From Octopus vulgaris (lineage: Eukaryota), in NCBI GenBank assembly GCA_951406725.2, contig OX597829.1, positions 17,856,001-17,920,000 on the forward strand: a stretch of 64,000 nt of DNA, read 5' to 3'. Made by a program: the position numbers and the translations under genes. Shown piece after piece: positions 7,205 through 64,000 of the stretch. The stretch's first letter is position 1. Every line of letters begins with the position of its first letter. The notes under the pieces are model-generated. The model was not told the origin of the DNA and did no database searches. It saw only the letters and a list, made by a program, of their open reading frames with translations.

Positions 7205-7790
7205 AATGGTGAAACAATATGGCATATTACTAGTCAATGTACTATCCCAGAAAGAATATAAGAGACGTCATGACAATACAGCAAGGATTATCCATTGGAC
7301 ACTTTGCAACAAATATGGACTTGACAGCAAAAACGTGGTACGAACATAAACCAGAAGGTGCCATCGAAAATGATATTGCAAAGATATTATGGGATTTTGT
7401 GATTCAGTACGACCATGAGATAGAGAATAGGACACCAGACGTAGTTTTTTATTGAGAATGAAGGCAAACGGTGCTGGATCATAGATATAGCACGCCCAGC
7501 TGACAACAAGGTATGCGATGAGGAAGAAAGAAAAGTTGTTAGATGTGATAGGTTAGTTTGGGATGTTGAGCAGTTGTGGTCGCTGAAAATGGTGGTAAAA
7601 ATTGAGAACAGTGAGTAAAAATCTTGAGAAGTACATGGAACGAATATAGGGGCTGTACTTGCAGAAAACGTCACTGTTTGGGTCCGCTCGAATACTCCGG
7701 ATAGTGGTCGAAAAATAAGGGGCGTTACCTTAGTTCACTAGTAGTAAACAGATGGCACCGTAGTACACCTCTAGCGTTAGAAGATGTGCA
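7205..7790 (+). mobile_element. R4/Dong-clade non-LTR retrotransposon 3' fragment (RLE domain, frameshifted)
   Basis: Frames give RRHDN..RIIHW, WYEHKPEGAIENDIAKILWDFVIQYDHEIENRTPDVV and CWIIDIARPAD, the PD...D restriction-like endonuclease region; followed by (AAG)n. Confidence 0.85.
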
Positions 7791-10699: not shown

Positions 10700-11281
10700 C
10701 TTTTCTACTCTAGATACAAGGCCCGAAGTTTTGGGGGAGGGGGCAGTCGATTAGATCGACTCCAGTACGCAACTGGTATTTAATTTATCGAACCCGAAAT
10801 GATGAAAGGCAAAGTCGACCTCGGCGGAATTTGAAATCAAAACGTAAAAACGGAAGAAATACCTATTTCTTTACTACCCACAAGGGGCTACACACAGATA
10901 AGACAAACAAGAACAGACAAACAGATTAAGCCGATTATATCGACCCCAGTGCTTAACAGGTACTTACTTTATCGACCCCGAAAGGATGAAAGGCAAAGTC
11001 GACCTCGACGGAATTTGAACTCAGAACGTAGCGACAGACGAAATACCTATTTCTTTACTACCCACAAGGGGCTACACACAGAGAGAACAAACAAGGACAG
11101 ACAAACAGATTAAGTCGATTATATCGACCCCAGTGTGTAACTGGTACTTATTCAATCGACCCAGAAAAGATGAAAGACAAAGTCGACCTTGGCGGAATTT
11201 GAACTCAGAACGCAGCGGCAGACGAAACACCGCTGAGCATTTCGCCCGGCGTGCTAACGTTTCTGGCCAGCTCGCCGCCTT
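10700..11281 (-). mobile_element. SINE family B tandem array (three bodies, ~184-bp period, last unit with older tail)
   Basis: GAAATACCTATTTCTTTACTACCCACAAGGGGCT junction occurs at ~10856 and ~11041; one head at 11281. Confidence 0.9.
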
Positions 11282-12871: not shown

Positions 12872-14240
12872 TGTTTCTTTATTAGCCACACAGGGCTGCA
12901 CACAGACAGGACAAAATTACAAGGTAGAGCTTTTCTTTGGGGGGTAAAAGAAGGGGGTTTGGTTTTCGATCAAAAGGGATCGTAAATGGAAAGAAAGAGG
13001 ACAAAAACAGGAAGGGATAAAATAAAATTTTTAAAAAAAGGGAGGTGAGGAAAAAAAAGGGGAGGTGAGGAAAAAAAGGGGAGGTGAGGAAAAAAAAGGG
13101 AAAGGAAAAAATTGATCAATAGGGATCGTTATCACAGAAATGTCAATATGAAGTGTAAAGGGAAGGACAGGTGAGGTTTACCCGTGGAAAGAAAAGCCTA
13201 CGGAAAAGACCGCGGTAACCTCGGTCAATGAAGTCACATGTTATATTTCTTTTTTTTTTGCAAATAAGCAACTCTCTGTATTAATTTTTACGGTTCATAG
13301 AATCATAGTCATACGTGCCATCCTTGCTACATTCACCCATCTTTTTTTAAAACATTCACTAGACAAAACTTGCCTCTCTACTCTCACATTCCTCTTCAAG
13401 TGATACTTGAAGAAGTTGATGAGAGATTGACCAGAGAGGAAAGTGTTTGTCTCTAATCCTTTCAGGCGCGTCCACCAGATGCATTCTTTCGCCATAGCCA
13501 CAAGTATGATAAAAATAGCTCTTCCTTCCCGTTTGAAGGAAGGAGGCGTGACGATATTAACGATAGACTCGGCTGATAAACCGACACGTCCCACACGTGA
13601 CAGCAGTCGTTCGACATAAGCCCACAGGTCGGAGATTGTTGGACACTGCACGATTGCGTGCAGAGCGGTTTCGTCGCTCTGCCCGCATCTCGGGCAGGTC
13701 GGCCCCGTGTTTTTCGAGCCATGCCTATAGAGCTTATCCCGAACGGGTAGCGCTTCTCTGTAGCACCGCCAGGCCAGGGATCTCTGGAAGTTATCCATAG
13801 GTCCCGGCCCGAAATTCGTTTCAAACAGGTGGGTCAGGTATTCCTCTTCGACGCCCAGGTTTGCCCCAAGATCATCGTCGTACCTCCCCTCCACTAATCC
13901 CTTATAGAATGCTTTGGTTGTGTTGAAGTCACTCAAGGTCGACCCGGGACGGCAGAGTTGCTTGAGAGCAACGCGACACTCGCGGTGCCATTCGCCCTTC
14001 CTCGGCCTCTTTTTGATCCACGACTGCAGTTCGGTCATGGAGACGAGCTGTGGGAACGCGTGCCTCACAAACGGCGACCACACCTGTTCACCGTCGTTTA
14101 CATAGAGCCGGAGATGTCGCAGTCTCACCGCGTGTCTGCGCATCATCAACCACGGCATGCCCAGCCCTCCTTTTAACGGGTGTTGACAGCAAATGGATCG
14201 CCTGACCATCGGGACGCATCCTTTCCACAAGAAGCGGAAG

Positions 14241-17170: not shown

Positions 17171-18035
17171 AGGCTTTGAGCTGGCAGAAACGTTAGCGCG
17201 CCGGGCGAAATGCTTAGCGGTATTTCGTCTGTCGTTACGTTGTGAATTCAAATTCCACCGAGGTCGACTTTGCCTTTCATCCTTTCGGGGTCGATAAATT
17301 AAGTACCAGTTAAGCATGGGGTCGATGTAATTGACTTAATTCGTTTGTCTGTCCTTGTTTGTCCCCCCTATGTTTAGCCACTTGTGGCCAATTAAGAAAT
17401 AAGAATCGTTAGCACGCCGGGCAAAATTCGTAGCCGTATTTCGTCTGCCGTTACGTTCTGAGTTCAAATTCCGCCGAGGTTGACTTTGCCTTTCATCCTT
17501 TCGGGGTCGATAAATTAAGTACCAGTTACGCATGGGGTCGATGTAATCGACTTAATCCGTTTGTCTGTCCTTGTTTGTCCCCTCTATGTTTAGCCACTTG
17601 TGGCCAATTAAGAAATAAGAATCGTTAGCACGCCGGGCAAAATTCGTAGCCGTATTTCGTCTGCCGTTACGTTCTGAGTTCAAATTCCGCCGAGGTTGAC
17701 TTTGCCTTTCATCCTTTCGGGGTCGATAAATAAAGTACCAGTTATGCATGGGGTCGATATAATCGACTCAATCCGTTTGTCTGTCCTTATTTGTCCCCTC
17801 TATGTTTAGCCCCTTGTGGGTAGTAAAGAATTTAGAATCGTTAGCACGCCGAGCAGAATGTTTTGCTGCATTTCGTCCGTCACTACGTTCTGGGTTCAAA
17901 TTCCCCCGAACTCGACTTTGCCTTTTATCTTTTAGGGATCGATAAAAATAAATATCAAAGAATTGGCTTCCATCTAATGGACAAGAACCCTCCATCCCCA
18001 CTTATCCCCCTAATTGAGGCCTTTCGCCTACAGAA
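17171..18035 (+). mobile_element. SINE family B tandem array (216-bp period, three young units plus one diverged terminal unit)
   Basis: Homologous ORFs begin at 17336, 17552 and 17768; tail-to-AATCGTTAGCACG junctions at ~17400, ~17616 and ~17832. Confidence 0.9.
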
Positions 18036-18544: not shown

Positions 18545-18860
18545 TAACCTGTAACCTTAGATATCCACGCTTTTTCGGTAGCCTTCAAAATGCTTAGAAC
18601 CCTCGCTGATTATCCTTGCTGTCCCTAAAAGACAAACATTTTATAAGAGCTCTTTCGGGAATTCTATTCCAATCCCCACCAGCCATTTGTCTATATCTTT
18701 GCTTACTGTTCCCAACGCACCAATCATTATAGGCATGACCTTTACAGCTTTCCTACTCCAAATTTTTCCTGTTTCAAATTTTAAGGGGTAATATTTTGTG
18801 TTTGTTTTTCTTTCTTTACGATCCTGGTGTTGGAAACATGTTATTGGGCGGTAATACTTT
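18545..18860 (-). mobile_element. R4/Dong-clade RLE 3' fragment, degenerate; may extend to ~19400
   Basis: Minus frames: KVMPIMIGALGTVSKDIDKWL..IGIEFPKELL..VCLLGTARII. Confidence 0.75.
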
Positions 18861-20058
18861 GCTTTTTGTGTCTTCGGCTTTTGGTAATAAGTAAGCTGTT
18901 CCTTTAGTCAGCCAAGGATTCGATCTAGTCTTGGGTTTTCCATTTGTGAGACTTTCTAAAATACACCTTAGCTCTCCTATTCCTATTGCTTCCCACTTCT
19001 GTCTTCAAATTCATTCAGTCTCACTTTCTCACGTTCTACCAATCAGCTTCAGCATTAGATTCTTTTTCGTTGCACCATATCTTCTTCCAGAACTCTTCCA
19101 TTTCTTCCATCTTAGGTGGCTCCTTTATTTCTAACTTACTATTACCAATTTCCCTATAAAATTTCTTAGCACCCTCTCTAGTTCATTTTATGCGTTTTCC
19201 CTTAGGTGGTGTTTTTTATGGCGTCACTACAGGCCTAGGTTAGGATTATCCTGGTTCTGGTTACCTGGTGGATCATCTTTTTGAGAGTTTGTTCCAGCAG
19301 CAGACTCTTCAACCTCAGTCTAGTTCCTCCATATTGGGTAACATGGCCCTTGTTGCCGGGTGACGACCGATCCGGCGTAGATTTTGGCTTGTAGTCACGA
19401 AACCATTGACGGTAAAATTACGAGACGGGTCTGTTTGTACAGAGTTAAATTTTTGATAGGACACAGCTTCCGAGTTCTTCGAATTGATATATTTCTCATA
19501 TCGTATTATATTTTTATTTTATTTTCTTTCCTTATTTTTCTTTTGGCTTTTGGTAGATATATTTCCGGGCATATCATTTTAGTGATGTTTTAAACTCAGT
19601 GACTATTTTGCTCCCCTTTTTTTTGTGTTCGTTAGCGGGAAATCACTTTGTTTTTGTTTTGTCTTGCTTCGCTCGTGACACGTGTTTGTTTTTGTATATG
19701 TACGCGTGTGTGAGTTGTGTAGGCATTATTTATGTTGCTTGTAACTGTTAAAATGTGTACATGCTTGCATAACCAGTTGCATGAATACGTATTAAATTAA
19801 TTTACGTATTGTGTATTCGGCTTGTTTTTCCCAGAATTCCTGATGTTAATTACTATTTTTGCACATGTCACATTAAGATATCGTGCATAGAAGAAAGAAA
19901 CTATACTTTGCACAGCAATAAACTTTCGGGGTTTTTTTCTTTTTACTTTGCTTTAAAAGAAGTTTTCCCGTAGATGTATTGCAATTTTTTCTTTCCATTG
20001 CACCGATGTTGTTGGATTGAATTCGTTTTGTAGAGAGATCTCCTCTATTATTATCATT

Positions 20059-29005: not shown

Positions 29006-29201
29006 CTTATACATGTAATTTGGACAAATTGCTATATGTCATTTAGTGTGTTCACGTGCTGAGTAAAGCACTAACACAGTGTCGGCTACCTAGTGTCATC
29101 TACAGCTGAGCTGTACTTCCGCTTCTTTCACATGTTCGATGAAAATTAACAACGTTTCTTCTTTCTATAGTTTTGTATTTTGTATGTGTAAGTACATCTC
29201 C

Positions 29202-29250
<49 letters not shown>

Positions 29251-29375
29251 AGATGTACTTGCATAGCGAGTGACTTGATCTGAGATCGCGTGCTGGAACG
29301 AAAACAATTGCAGCGTGGAGGGTGTTTATAAGAAACACACAAAACCGTTAGATTCACTTCAACATTTAAATTTAA

Positions 29376-30143: not shown

Positions 30144-30462
30144 ACTCTTTTCAAGGACAACGGTTAAAATTCAAACTTTATTTTATTCTATTTATCCTTT
30201 TTTTATTTTTTTATTTTTACATGCGTACATATATAATACATATATATATTTACACCTACTCATATGTGCGTGCATATGTATATATATATAAGTTCAGCAA
30301 AATTTAGATTCAAATGAATATGGTACTTATGTTAGATGCACCAGAATTTTGTATGGTGTTATCCATAAAAATCCATGGGGTGATTATAATCAAATTAAGC
30401 AACAGGAATAACTTCGGTAATTTGGTACGATATTACCGAAGTTATTCTTGTTGCTTATTTTG

Positions 30463-30509
<47 letters not shown>

Positions 30510-30537
30510 TCAAAATAAGCAACAAGAATGACTCCGG

Positions 30538-30630
30538 TAATTTGGTACGATCGTTTCGTACTACATCATTTTATTAAATGTTGTAAGTATTACAACAGAT
30601 TTAAGATGCTGAGTACTCATCAGCCAATTA
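30538..30630 (-). ncRNA. Type-I hammerhead ribozyme with canonical core and long stem II
   Basis: Minus: UAAUUGG-CUGAUGA-GUACU...AGUAC-GAAA-CGAUC-GUA-CCAAAUUA; all core nucleotides present; palindromic ACGAUCGU stem III. Confidence 0.85.
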
Positions 30631-30770
30631 TAGAGGTTTTCCATTAATACAAAAGTTTTTAAATCAAGTGGTAACATTATAGAGAAGGTAGATATACAGA
30701 CAAAGATGTAGATTTAAATTTTAAGAACATATGAGGTAGTGAAGTCTTTCCGCTGACTGGAAAACCTCTA

Positions 30771-30863
30771 TAATTGGCTGATGAGTACTCAGCATCTTAA
30801 ATCCGTTGTAATACTTACAACATCTAATAAAATGATGTAGTACGAAACGATCGAACCAAATTA
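30771..30863 (+). ncRNA. Inverted sister hammerhead with triplet changed from GUA to GAA
   Basis: UAAUUGG-CUGAUGA-GUACU...AGUAC-GAAA-CGAUC-GAA-CCAAAUUA. Confidence 0.7.
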
Positions 30864-31079
30864 CCGGAGTCATTCTTGTTGTGATCACCCCACAAATTTT
30901 TATGGATAACACCATACAAAATTCTGGTGCATCTAAATCAAGTACCATATTCATTCGAATCAATATAGCCAGCTGGAGGCGAAGTTTCCTGGGACTAGAT
31001 AACTAACTTTCGTACCAACCGGAACTGCCACATTATGTTGGCAAATAATCTTTAATACATATATATATATAAATATATA

Positions 31080-31347
31080 TCACGTGATCACATGACTGAC
31101 CAGACCATCAGATGTTACTACACATCGCTGGTCACAATGCGTACGCATTGTTTTAGCCTTCGAATGACGCCACCCCGCTGAGAGTAAGAGTGGTGAAGGA
31201 GTACAGCAGGGATCACCCCTCCGGAGCCTCGTGGAGCTTTTAGGTGTTTTCGTTCAATAAACACACACAACGCCCGGTCTGGGAATCGAAACCACGATCC
31301 TACGACCGCGATTCCGCTGCCATAACCACTGGGCCATTGCGCCTCCA
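31080..31347 (-). mobile_element. SINE family C head with a second tail type
   Basis: Head matches 20700-20836; tail (…GGTCTGGTCAGTCATGTGATCACGTG) shared with 37057-37150. Confidence 0.85.
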
Positions 31348-48351: not shown

Positions 48352-49061
48352 GACATAAATACACATACATACATATAAATATATATATATATACATACAT
48401 AATACATACACATACATATAAATATATATATATATACATACATAATACATACATATCATATATATATGTATGTATATATATATATATATATATATATAAT
48501 TGTCTTTTATGCGCGTAAGAAGGCCAGTGACAAAGAAGAGAAGAGGTGAGATTGTGCGGAAGGAACCAACGTGAGGAAAAATATGATACAGTGTCTTGGC
48601 AGTTTTATAAACGTCTGAAATTCGTACACGTAATCATTCGTTCGCAAACTCGGAAAACAATAAATCCTTACATAATAGGGGCAAGGCCTGAAATTCTTTT
48701 CAGTAGAGACTAGTCGCTTACATTGAATTTGAGTGGTCAAATGGTATTTTTAATTTTAACAGTGTCAAAAGGCAGATGAAAGGAAAAATTGTACTCGGTG
48801 GCATTCGAGCTCACACTGTCAGGAGCCAAAAATTAATGCCCTGATGCAGTACCAGGCAGTGGCTCTCATGGCTTCTGATCTTAACAGATTGGAAGTGTTA
48901 TCATGTACATTGTTTTGTCTTGGTATAAAAAATGGGCTACAGCAAATATTCTGCCCAATACCACAGATTTGCTTGTCAGTTGTTTGACCTTAACAAGTTG
49001 AGCATGTCCCTTGGTGGCTGACGATATGTGCATCTCTGATCACGAGCAGAAGTAGTGGGTG

Positions 49062-49378
49062 AGCTTTCTAATTGATGTATCAATACCAGCAGATGACAAC
49101 GTTTCTCTAAAAGAAATGGAGAAACTTTCAAAATACAAAGACCTGGAAACGGAGGTAACGCGAATGTGGAATCTAAAAACAGAAACAATTCCTATCATAG
49201 TAGGCGAAGTAGGTATGATAAAAAAATATTCAGACAAATACATAACAAAAACACAAGGACTTACAAACACATATAACATACAGAAAATTGCACTACTGGG
49301 CACTGCACATACCCAAGGCACACAGAGCTACGCTCGGTAGTGAAGTGAAAGCACGCTATAAAAATAAACCTACTGAAT
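49062..49378 (+). mobile_element. R4/Dong-clade 3' fragment (copy 1) ending in (TAA)n
   Basis: LIDVSIPADDNVSLKEMEKLSKYKDLETEVTRMWNLKTETIPIIVG...IQKIALLGTAH. Confidence 0.9.
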
Positions 49379-51815: not shown

Positions 51816-52280
51816 AGGCGGCGACCTGACAGAATCGTTAGCACGCCGTGCGAAATGCTTAGCGGTATTTCGTCTACCGTTACGTTCTGAGTTCAAATTC
51901 CGCCGAGGTCGACTTTGCCTTTCATCCTTTCGGGGTCGATTAAATAAGTACCAGTTACGCACTGGCGTCGATATAATCGACTTAATCCGTCTGTCTGTCC
52001 TTGTTTGTCCTCTCTGTGTTTAGCCCCTTGTGGTTAATAAAGAAATAGGTATTTTGTCTGCCGTTACGTTCTGAGTTCAAATTCCGCTGAGGTCGACTTT
52101 GCCTGTCATCCTTTCGGAGTCGATAAATTAAGTACCAATTACGAAGTGGGGTCGATGTAATCGACTTAAACCATTTGCCTGTCCTTGATTGTCCCCCTCT
52201 AAGTTTTTATCCCCTTGTGGGCAATAAAGAAATAAGAATCGTTAGCACGCCGGATAAAATTCTTAGCGCCATTTTGTCCG
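51816..52280 (+). mobile_element. SINE family B tandem (two bodies plus remnant)
   Basis: Junctions GAAATA|GGTATTTTG (~52048) and GAAATA|AGAATCGTTAG (~52234). Confidence 0.9.
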
Positions 52281-63049: not shown

Positions 63050-64000
63050 GATCGTCATATTAAAATTTTTTTTCACCGTTGTTACAATCATCTGAAACGG
63101 AACTGTCAAAGCGCAATATTCTAGCAATTTTTCTATTCAACTTCAAAAAAGGACGTAAAACAGCTGAAACTGCTCGCAATATCAACGAGACATTTGTTGA
63201 GTAAATGACCAGTGAATGGTCAGCTCGAAAAGGGTTAAAACGATTTCGCAGTAGAGACCTGAGCCTTGAAGATCGTGAGCGTAGTGGACGCCCATCTGTC
63301 ATCGATGACGGTCTTTAATTGACCGTCATCGAGAAAGATCCACGTAAAACCACCATAGAACTGGCAAAAGAAAACTGCCTGCAATCATTTGCATGCAATC
63401 GAAAAATCAAGAAAAGCATACGATTGGGCACCATACCATTTGAATGAAAATCAGAAGATGCGTAGATATGAAATTTGCTCGTTGCTTCTTCTCCGTAACC
63501 AGACTGATCCATTTCTCGACCGTATTGTAACTTGCGATGAAAAGTGGATTCTGTACAATAATAAAAAAACGTTCCTCGCAGTGGTTGGACCAAAATAAAA
63601 CACTGAAAACCCTCCCTAAACTAAACCTCTTCAAAAAGGTTATGGTGACTGTTTGGTCTCATCCACTATAACTTTTTAAAACCTGGAAAAACCATTACTG
63701 CAGAAACATATTGCCATGAAATTGCCAAAATGAACGTAAAACTGCTACTCCTCCGTCTCAGACTGGTCAACAGAAGAGAGCCAATCAATCTTCATGACAA
63801 TGTTCACCCACACGTTTCACTAATGACGCTCCAGATGTCGAGGGAACTTGGCTACGAAGTTCTTCCCCACCCAGCTTATTCCCCTGATCCTTCTACTGAC
63901 TACCACTTTTTTAAGCACCTTGATGGTTTTATGCGATAGGAGAAGGTCAAAAATCAAACCGATGCTGAAATAGCGTTCAAAGAGTTCATCAGCTGCAGAA
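63046..64000 (+). pseudogene. Mariner transposase pseudogene (Hsmar1/cecropia-like), cut by window edge
   Basis: FKKGRKTAETARNIN, EDRERSGRPS, WAPYHL, FLDRIVTCDEKWILYNN, KKVMVTVW, LHDNVHPH, LPHPAYSPD-PSTDYHFFKHLD; stops and frameshifts; D-D spacing 33 here versus the usual 34; starts right after (TA)n. Confidence 0.92.

Follow-up and report, generated by a model that had tools for sequence, protein, structure and literature searches.

Introduction

In Penelope-like elements (PLEs) a head-to-head arrangement of copies is the usual one (PMC3846280), and the parts of the literature cited here describe insertions into (TA)n targets in which a 5'-truncated copy stands inverted at the 5' end and the tail is on one side only (PMC8557442); copies that are inverted, truncated at the 5' end and tailed on one side are likewise described in PMC8969392. 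Self-priming on an antisense template has been proposed for rotifer elements (PMC3846280). The purified protein of PAc, a Poseidon element of Anolis, cuts and extends both strands, favours AT-rich DNA and uses two internal start sites on the RNA for reverse transcription (PMC11167929). The same report gives this protein as a predicted dimer that assists its own hammerhead ribozyme (HHR), the cleavage of which is dispensable for insertion in vitro.

The minimal HHRs of metazoan PLEs occur in opposite-strand pairs 100-700 bp apart; as monomers they did not cleave and as dimers they cleaved weakly, according to the sections cited of PMC4209133. The descriptor in that paper allows a stem II of 3-7 bp and a loop 2 of 3-10 nt. 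In the literature covered, the closest precedent for a larger domain is PLE-X1_sMoe of spike moss, whose enlarged domain II of 52 nt (9 bp and a 34-nt loop) is marked non-canonical in PMC8557442, where 'half-core' cases spaced by 35-50 nt are also given.

The whole stretch of DNA analysed here, 64,000 nucleotides of Octopus vulgaris, is called the window; it is about 36% GC and rich in microsatellites, and its dispersed repeats are like those in octopus genomes. Near its middle lie inverted repeats with two opposing hammerhead motifs. We think that a high-copy Penelope-like family inserted here twice, independently, in one (TA)n microsatellite, and that each insertion is 5'-truncated and a head-to-head pair; we place the probability of this reading at about 0.78. 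The locus resembles insertions of EN+ PLEs in the head-to-head 5'-truncated copy, the extension of one arm, the (TA)n target and the HHR near the 3' end (PMC3846280, PMC8557442), but it lacks an ORF, its extensions measure 94 and about 170 nt where the cited parts of those papers give 30-40 bp, and two insertions stand side by side. With metazoan PLE type I HHRs (PMC4209133) it shares the CUGAUGA/GAAA core, G10.1-C11.1, a short stem I, a palindromic stem III and the opposite-strand pair, whereas its stem II arm of 59 nt, with about 23 pairs, falls outside the range of the descriptor.

Hydra-clade PLEs (PMC8557442) are also similar in their (TA)n targets, short stem I, palindromic stem III (3-4 bp in Hydra HHRs) and GUA/GUU cleavage site, and their 3' end lies about 60-150 nt past the HHR; the stem II of the Hydra HHRs listed there is unlike that of the locus, being 3-7 bp in every case. 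Hydra-1_Obim of the same paper was considered as the identity of the family and rejected, as its HHR sequence differs, and six motifs of the family had no relevant match in the supplement of that paper. PLE-X1_sMoe has the enlarged domain II in common with the locus, but is a plant element, endonuclease-less, rDNA-targeting and unrelated in sequence. PAc supplies a mechanism (cutting and extension of both strands at AT-rich DNA, two starts of reverse transcription, a protein-assisted HHR), but its ORF begins in stem II, and stem II is apparently of normal size in the text cited (PMC11167929).

Results

Two head-to-head pairs in one microsatellite

The features of the locus are as follows, with arm coordinates in brackets read in the sense of the HHR and counted from its cleavage site.

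30280..30290, no strand: left (TA)n flanking sequence, the target microsatellite
30291..30431, minus: arm A, 5'-truncated copy (-5 to +135)
30432..30468, plus: arm B, copy of 37 nt (+5 to +41) that faces A head-to-head, 3' end in (TA)n
30465..30508, no strand: (TA)22 separating the two insertions
30505..30758, minus: arm D, 5'-truncated copy (-212 to +41), comprising the HHR and the 'spacer' 30644-30757
30542..30627, minus: type I minimal hammerhead, core intact, cleavage predicted between 30546 and 30545
30558..30616, minus: stem II, 59 nt, with 5 basal pairs, a bulged middle helix and an 8-bp terminal hairpin
30758..31055, plus: arm F, copy truncated at its 5' end (-97 to about +213) that faces D head-to-head
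30774..30859, plus: second hammerhead copy, GAA replacing GUA (U16.1 lost), one stem II pair region weakened
30902..31006, plus: frame of 34 codons that opens with an ATG in the arm F extension, a possible ORF start
31056..31080, no strand: right TA-rich flanking sequence

Alignment and folding recovered every inverted arm that had been reported for this DNA, and the four arms do belong to one repeat unit, as was proposed. The inner arms (30520-30643 and 30758-30881) are identical at 121 of 124 positions; the outer arms (30431-30302 on the minus strand against 30850-30966) share 103 of 117 positions and are interrupted by one 13-nt gap; and the arms of the 37-bp hairpin at 30385-30468 agree at 35 of 37. 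The region has a folding energy of -410.9 kcal/mol, with z -44 when compared to 20 shuffles. In addition to the arms of the original prediction there is a 124-bp hairpin (30425-30548, 92%) that it did not include, formed by arms B and D with (TA)22 between them.

The A/B pair (30291-30468) is joined head to head with zero overlap, and arm B falls within the extent of arm A, leaving a 10-nt loop. Arm A starts inside the stem III palindrome, without the HHR core, and runs 94 nt past the common end at +41. The D/F pair (30505-31055) is joined head to head with an overlap of 1-2 nt; D is 115 nt longer at the 5' end and F, which has a long extension and a local 13-nt deletion at 30881, is about 170 nt longer at the 3' end. 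All four arm 3' ends run into TA repeats, and some 6-8% of the window is equally near such runs.

The original prediction treated all of this as one nested structure, a view that the alleles of the arms contradict. At two positions A is the same as B and D is the same as F while the two pairs differ, and both alleles are present in other copies of the family (variant rows 30867 and 30871). Since the pairs carry different alleles, and hence stem from different templates, the nesting arises secondarily, from the tail-to-tail position of two adjacent pairs within a single (TA)n tract. Two insertions in one microsatellite are most likely on this comparison of sequences.

A 12-bp palindrome at 30381-30392 coincides with the +41 site where B and D end, and the 13-nt deletion of F takes part of this palindrome. 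Elsewhere in the window, at 29185-29265, inverted arms of about 18 bp flank another (TA)22 tail-to-tail, as B and D do; their sequence is unrelated.

The family in sequencing runs

A search of sequencing runs found 20 holders of the family from 11 studies and four coded organisms, none of them listed as RNA. Contigs were placed for 4 of 24 runs, at 80% likeness on 960 bases, which gave 2026, 2459 and 2151 contigs in three DNA runs (coded organisms A, B and C) and 102 family contigs in run X8, which is RNA by guess only and uninformative on the locus itself. In the three DNA runs the summed depth over the HHR was 7,000-17,000 times the median depth of a single joint contig, a rough figure that is not a copy number, and the copies of the family probably number in the thousands.

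Other contigs run from the HHR through 30644-30741 without a break; the 'spacer' is thus the part of arm D that lies upstream. In 10, 7 and 11 contigs, loose ends at 30759 indicate that the family extends upstream of D. The 15 joints listed, nearly all of which rest on single contigs, comprise seven head-to-head inversions with various breakpoints, four strand switches of ambiguous direction and four colinear bridges, the last of which place the extension of A and the HHR of D in one unit. Inversion recurs in other copies at differing breakpoints; a comparison of copies for recurrent inversion points had been suggested with the original prediction.

The hammerhead of arm D

The HHR of arm D has the core halves CUGAUGA (30623-30617) and GAAA (30557-30554), G10.1-C11.1, a GUA site with predicted cleavage after 30546, and a 4-bp stem I of UUGG/CCAA. 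Its stem III is the palindrome ACGAUCGU (30554-30547), that is, 2 bp and a palindromic GAUC loop. A full HHR descriptor (core, stem II of at least 4 bp, stem I of at least 4 bp, and UH) matched once in the window, compared to 0.01 matches per shuffled window (1 in 100 block shuffles). The motif had been called fully canonical, which holds for the core only; it is of the minimal, dimer-dependent type. It had also been set against stems of 3-5 bp elsewhere, but a relaxed scan found no short-stem HHR in the rest of the window and thus no local comparator.

Searching the window against Rfam gave no match at the gathering score, and the 52 matches at E up to 10 included no HHR model. These 52, mostly miRNA models on AT-rich hairpins and every one under the cut-off, were rejected. 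A pattern scan for long-armed cores returned five metagenome stretches and a viral one (of which one is the same contig), and blastn showed none to be similar to the query. In one metagenome contig (L004, 6001-6091, minus) the core halves stand apart by a 72-nt hairpin with six closing pairs, and the same palindromic stem III is present; this motif has no stem I beside the core and no similarity to the family of the window.

In folding models of the arm D monomer, two local hairpins are predicted to bury the core, and the HHR shape lies 4.5 kcal/mol above the ensemble. A two-RNA model in which stem III has 8 bp and both stems II are formed reaches -43.4 kcal/mol, compared to -37.8 for two monomers, and an inactive dimer is lower than this HHR dimer, at -47.0. 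We infer that the arm D HHR is of the minimal type that would be cleaved as a dimer. Because HHR monomers of this kind should be inactive, going by the cited part of PMC4209133, and because the monomer is predicted to misfold, inactivity of the isolated 30538-30630 RNA, on which the original prediction was to stand or fall, is an unsound refutation.

A stem II of 59 nucleotides

Stem II had been estimated at about 60 nt; it measures 59 and folds well, at -13.2 kcal/mol with z -3.1 (an equally good fold arose in 5 of 1000 shuffles), and its five basal pairs have probabilities of 0.91-0.99. Among the 32 pieces listed, of 6,804, nine span stem II at about 80-90% identity, in all four runs and eight of the nine without a gap, and no indel or joint that shortens stem II is found among those listed. 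The 59-nt stem II is, judged from these copies, a trait of the whole family.

The variant table holds at least four stem II variants. The one at 30605 (55% of depth in run X1, 63% in X6 and 13% in X4) lowers the stem II fold to -15.9 and makes a perfect 7-bp middle helix; two further listed variants yield a G-U pair in one case and an unpaired position in the other. The variant at 30615 (64% of depth in X4) disrupts a basal pair, and the base collapses unless this is compensated. Together these suggest that stem II pairing is conserved across copies. Stem II shows no complementarity of more than 7 nt to other parts of the unit, and so we do not propose a pseudoknot.

The literature covered, which does not extend to Lunse et al. 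2017 (PLE hammerhead variants) or the repeat databases, describes neither this family nor, for hammerheads of animal PLEs, a stem II of 59 nt; the family may already be catalogued in repeat databases. The long stem II appears to be a new structural variant among HHRs, one that is missed by Rfam and by the published descriptor.

The hammerhead of arm F and double-stranded RNA

The plus-strand HHR starts its core at 30778, 155 nt from the core start of D, and has GAA at 30853-30855, as was noted originally. An A15.1-U16.1 pair is required for HHR cleavage according to the section cited of PMC3088659; the arm F HHR therefore cannot be cut. It could still serve as the enzyme strand of a mixed dimer. 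D and F lie on opposite strands, and their HHRs cannot dimerize in cis. Besides GAA, arm F has two further changes in stem II and the 13-nt deletion. Arm F seems to be decaying, and three differences in F against apparently none in D are too few to claim selection.

The suggestion that a read-through transcript would form long double-stranded RNA is borne out in silico, and in silico only, with 304 pairs and a longest helix of 96 bp (minus strand). Such an RNA would, on this model, bury both HHRs. In run X8, whose identity as RNA is guessed, the A>G and T>C counts that would bear on A-to-I editing were 10 and 9, compared to 8-11 and 8-11 in the DNA runs, counts that paralogues confound.

Probable membership of the Penelope-like elements

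On its sequence the locus fits EN+ PLEs in four of six features. A 5'-truncated inverted copy joined head-to-head is present twice; the tail is one-sided, B and D ending at +41, A at +135 and F at about +213; a type I HHR is present near the 3' end; and the target is AT-rich, (TA)n. The remaining two are a target-site duplication, which is not discernible within the (TA)n flanks, and an RT or GIY-YIG ORF, which is absent from the locus and was not recognized by eye among the frames of the window. As for a minimal PLE hammerhead, arm D has the core, G10.1-C11.1 and an NUH site, where arm F has GAA, and the short palindromic helix III is present, as an 8-bp intermolecular helix in the model. From these features we infer PLE identity.

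The 34-codon frame in the extension of arm F is possibly what would be expected if the tail were the start of the next unit; arm A has its stop after 18 codons. A protein search with the extension peptide returned two candidates, neither of which was scored. One match among 1.84 billion proteins, a tandem-repeat protein without a pairwise alignment, was rejected, as were Atlas matches of the peptide at 0.77-0.78, under the level of a lead.

Discussion

The two pairs at this locus are most simply explained together by priming on both strands of the target. The endonuclease of the element would nick both target strands, and from each nick element RNA would be reverse transcribed. One start would lie 41 nt past the point of HHR cleavage, at the TA-rich site (arms B and D), and the other further downstream (arms A and F). 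The incomplete cDNAs would then be joined at their truncated ends with an overlap of 0-2 nt. Two-strand priming of this kind resembles L1 twin priming. In the seven head-to-head joints listed from other copies, the sense arms start at +42, at +49, twice at +80 and three times at -30 to -49, and the starts at +42 and +49 hint at agreement with this model. The HHR would be the 3'-end ribozyme of the family, of the minimal dimer-dependent type I with an irregular 59-nt stem II. In an active parent an HHR dimer formed through the palindromic stem III would cut the tandem precursor RNA, probably with the help of protein, and the copies at the locus would be passive debris.

The original prediction explained the architecture by inverted pLTRs formed through template switching. 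Inverted PLE pLTRs are still the best reading; the proposed route fares less well. The same PLE family could have produced the whole 765 bp in one event, or each pair by fold-back or self-priming with template switching, which we consider improbable. Fold-back suits the A/B pair, since B is wholly within A with a 10-nt loop, and A starts within the stem III palindrome, junction palindromes being taken as a sign of self-priming in the cited part of PMC3846280. It does not suit D and F. Each of these arms has sequence that the other lacks, so neither was copied from the other, and the pair is incompatible with fold-back or a single template switch. Likewise, the differing alleles of A/B and D/F call for at least two templates, which argues against a single event. 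Junctions of the D/F type are thus a natural test of fold-back versus two-strand priming, which is an open question in PLE integration.

Even less probable, in our view, is a non-autonomous, non-coding HHR element, retrozyme-like, that is mobilized by a PLE. The very high copy number, an extension without a protein homologue, the stop after 18 codons in arm A and stops in all three sense frames of the upstream 115 nt would be in keeping with such an element, and retrozymes have been proposed as PLE derivatives in the part cited of 10.64898/2026.07.22.740005. However, what defines non-LTR retrozymes is a direct tandem array whose repeats measure 150-450 bp and each contain a canonical HHR (PMC7229834, the section cited), and the window has no direct tandem of the unit; moreover, the family goes on upstream, and the insertion mechanism is common to both readings. 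Finally, an assembly or library artefact (a fold-back chimera), or a MITE or foldback DNA transposon with a chance HHR-like core, is very improbable, for although none of the listed contigs spans the junctions of the locus itself, the arms differ as chimeric copies would not (at 3 of 124 positions plus the 13-nt gap, and at 2 of 37), inversions recur in independent runs at varying points, unlike fixed terminal inverted repeats, and the HHR descriptor is far from a chance finding by the shuffled windows.

Within the reading of two PLE insertions, a bolder role for the RNA can be imagined, and we regard it as unlikely. Stem II would be a conserved functional domain and the monomer bistable, a state resolved when two RNAs pair at stem III, perhaps on the RT dimer of the element itself, and the RNA dimer would supply two templates to the two nicked strands. 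If true, this would account for the 138-nt overlap of head-to-head arms such as D/F and would link the hammerhead directly to the inverted insertions of PLEs.

The inverted architecture itself would be ordinary PLE-type insertion debris of a sort already in print. An abundant animal family whose HHR is missed by Rfam and the descriptors means that HHR counts in such genomes would be underestimates, and some elements scored as lacking an HHR may have one. Its thousands of diverged copies would be ready material for covariation analysis.

Other features of the window

An open frame at 13298-14090 (minus) looks like part of an L1/Tx1-type LINE protein, presumably its C-terminal zinc-finger region, and fragments at 7234-7452, 18644-18907 and 49056-49337 look like R2/R4-type non-LTR elements at their restriction-like endonuclease end. 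Broken fragments at 63359-63936 (plus) are, we assume, of a mariner-type transposase. Short tandem arrays whose 184- and 216-bp units belong to one dispersed SINE-like repeat are found at 10748-11231, 17186-17946 and 51864-52234.
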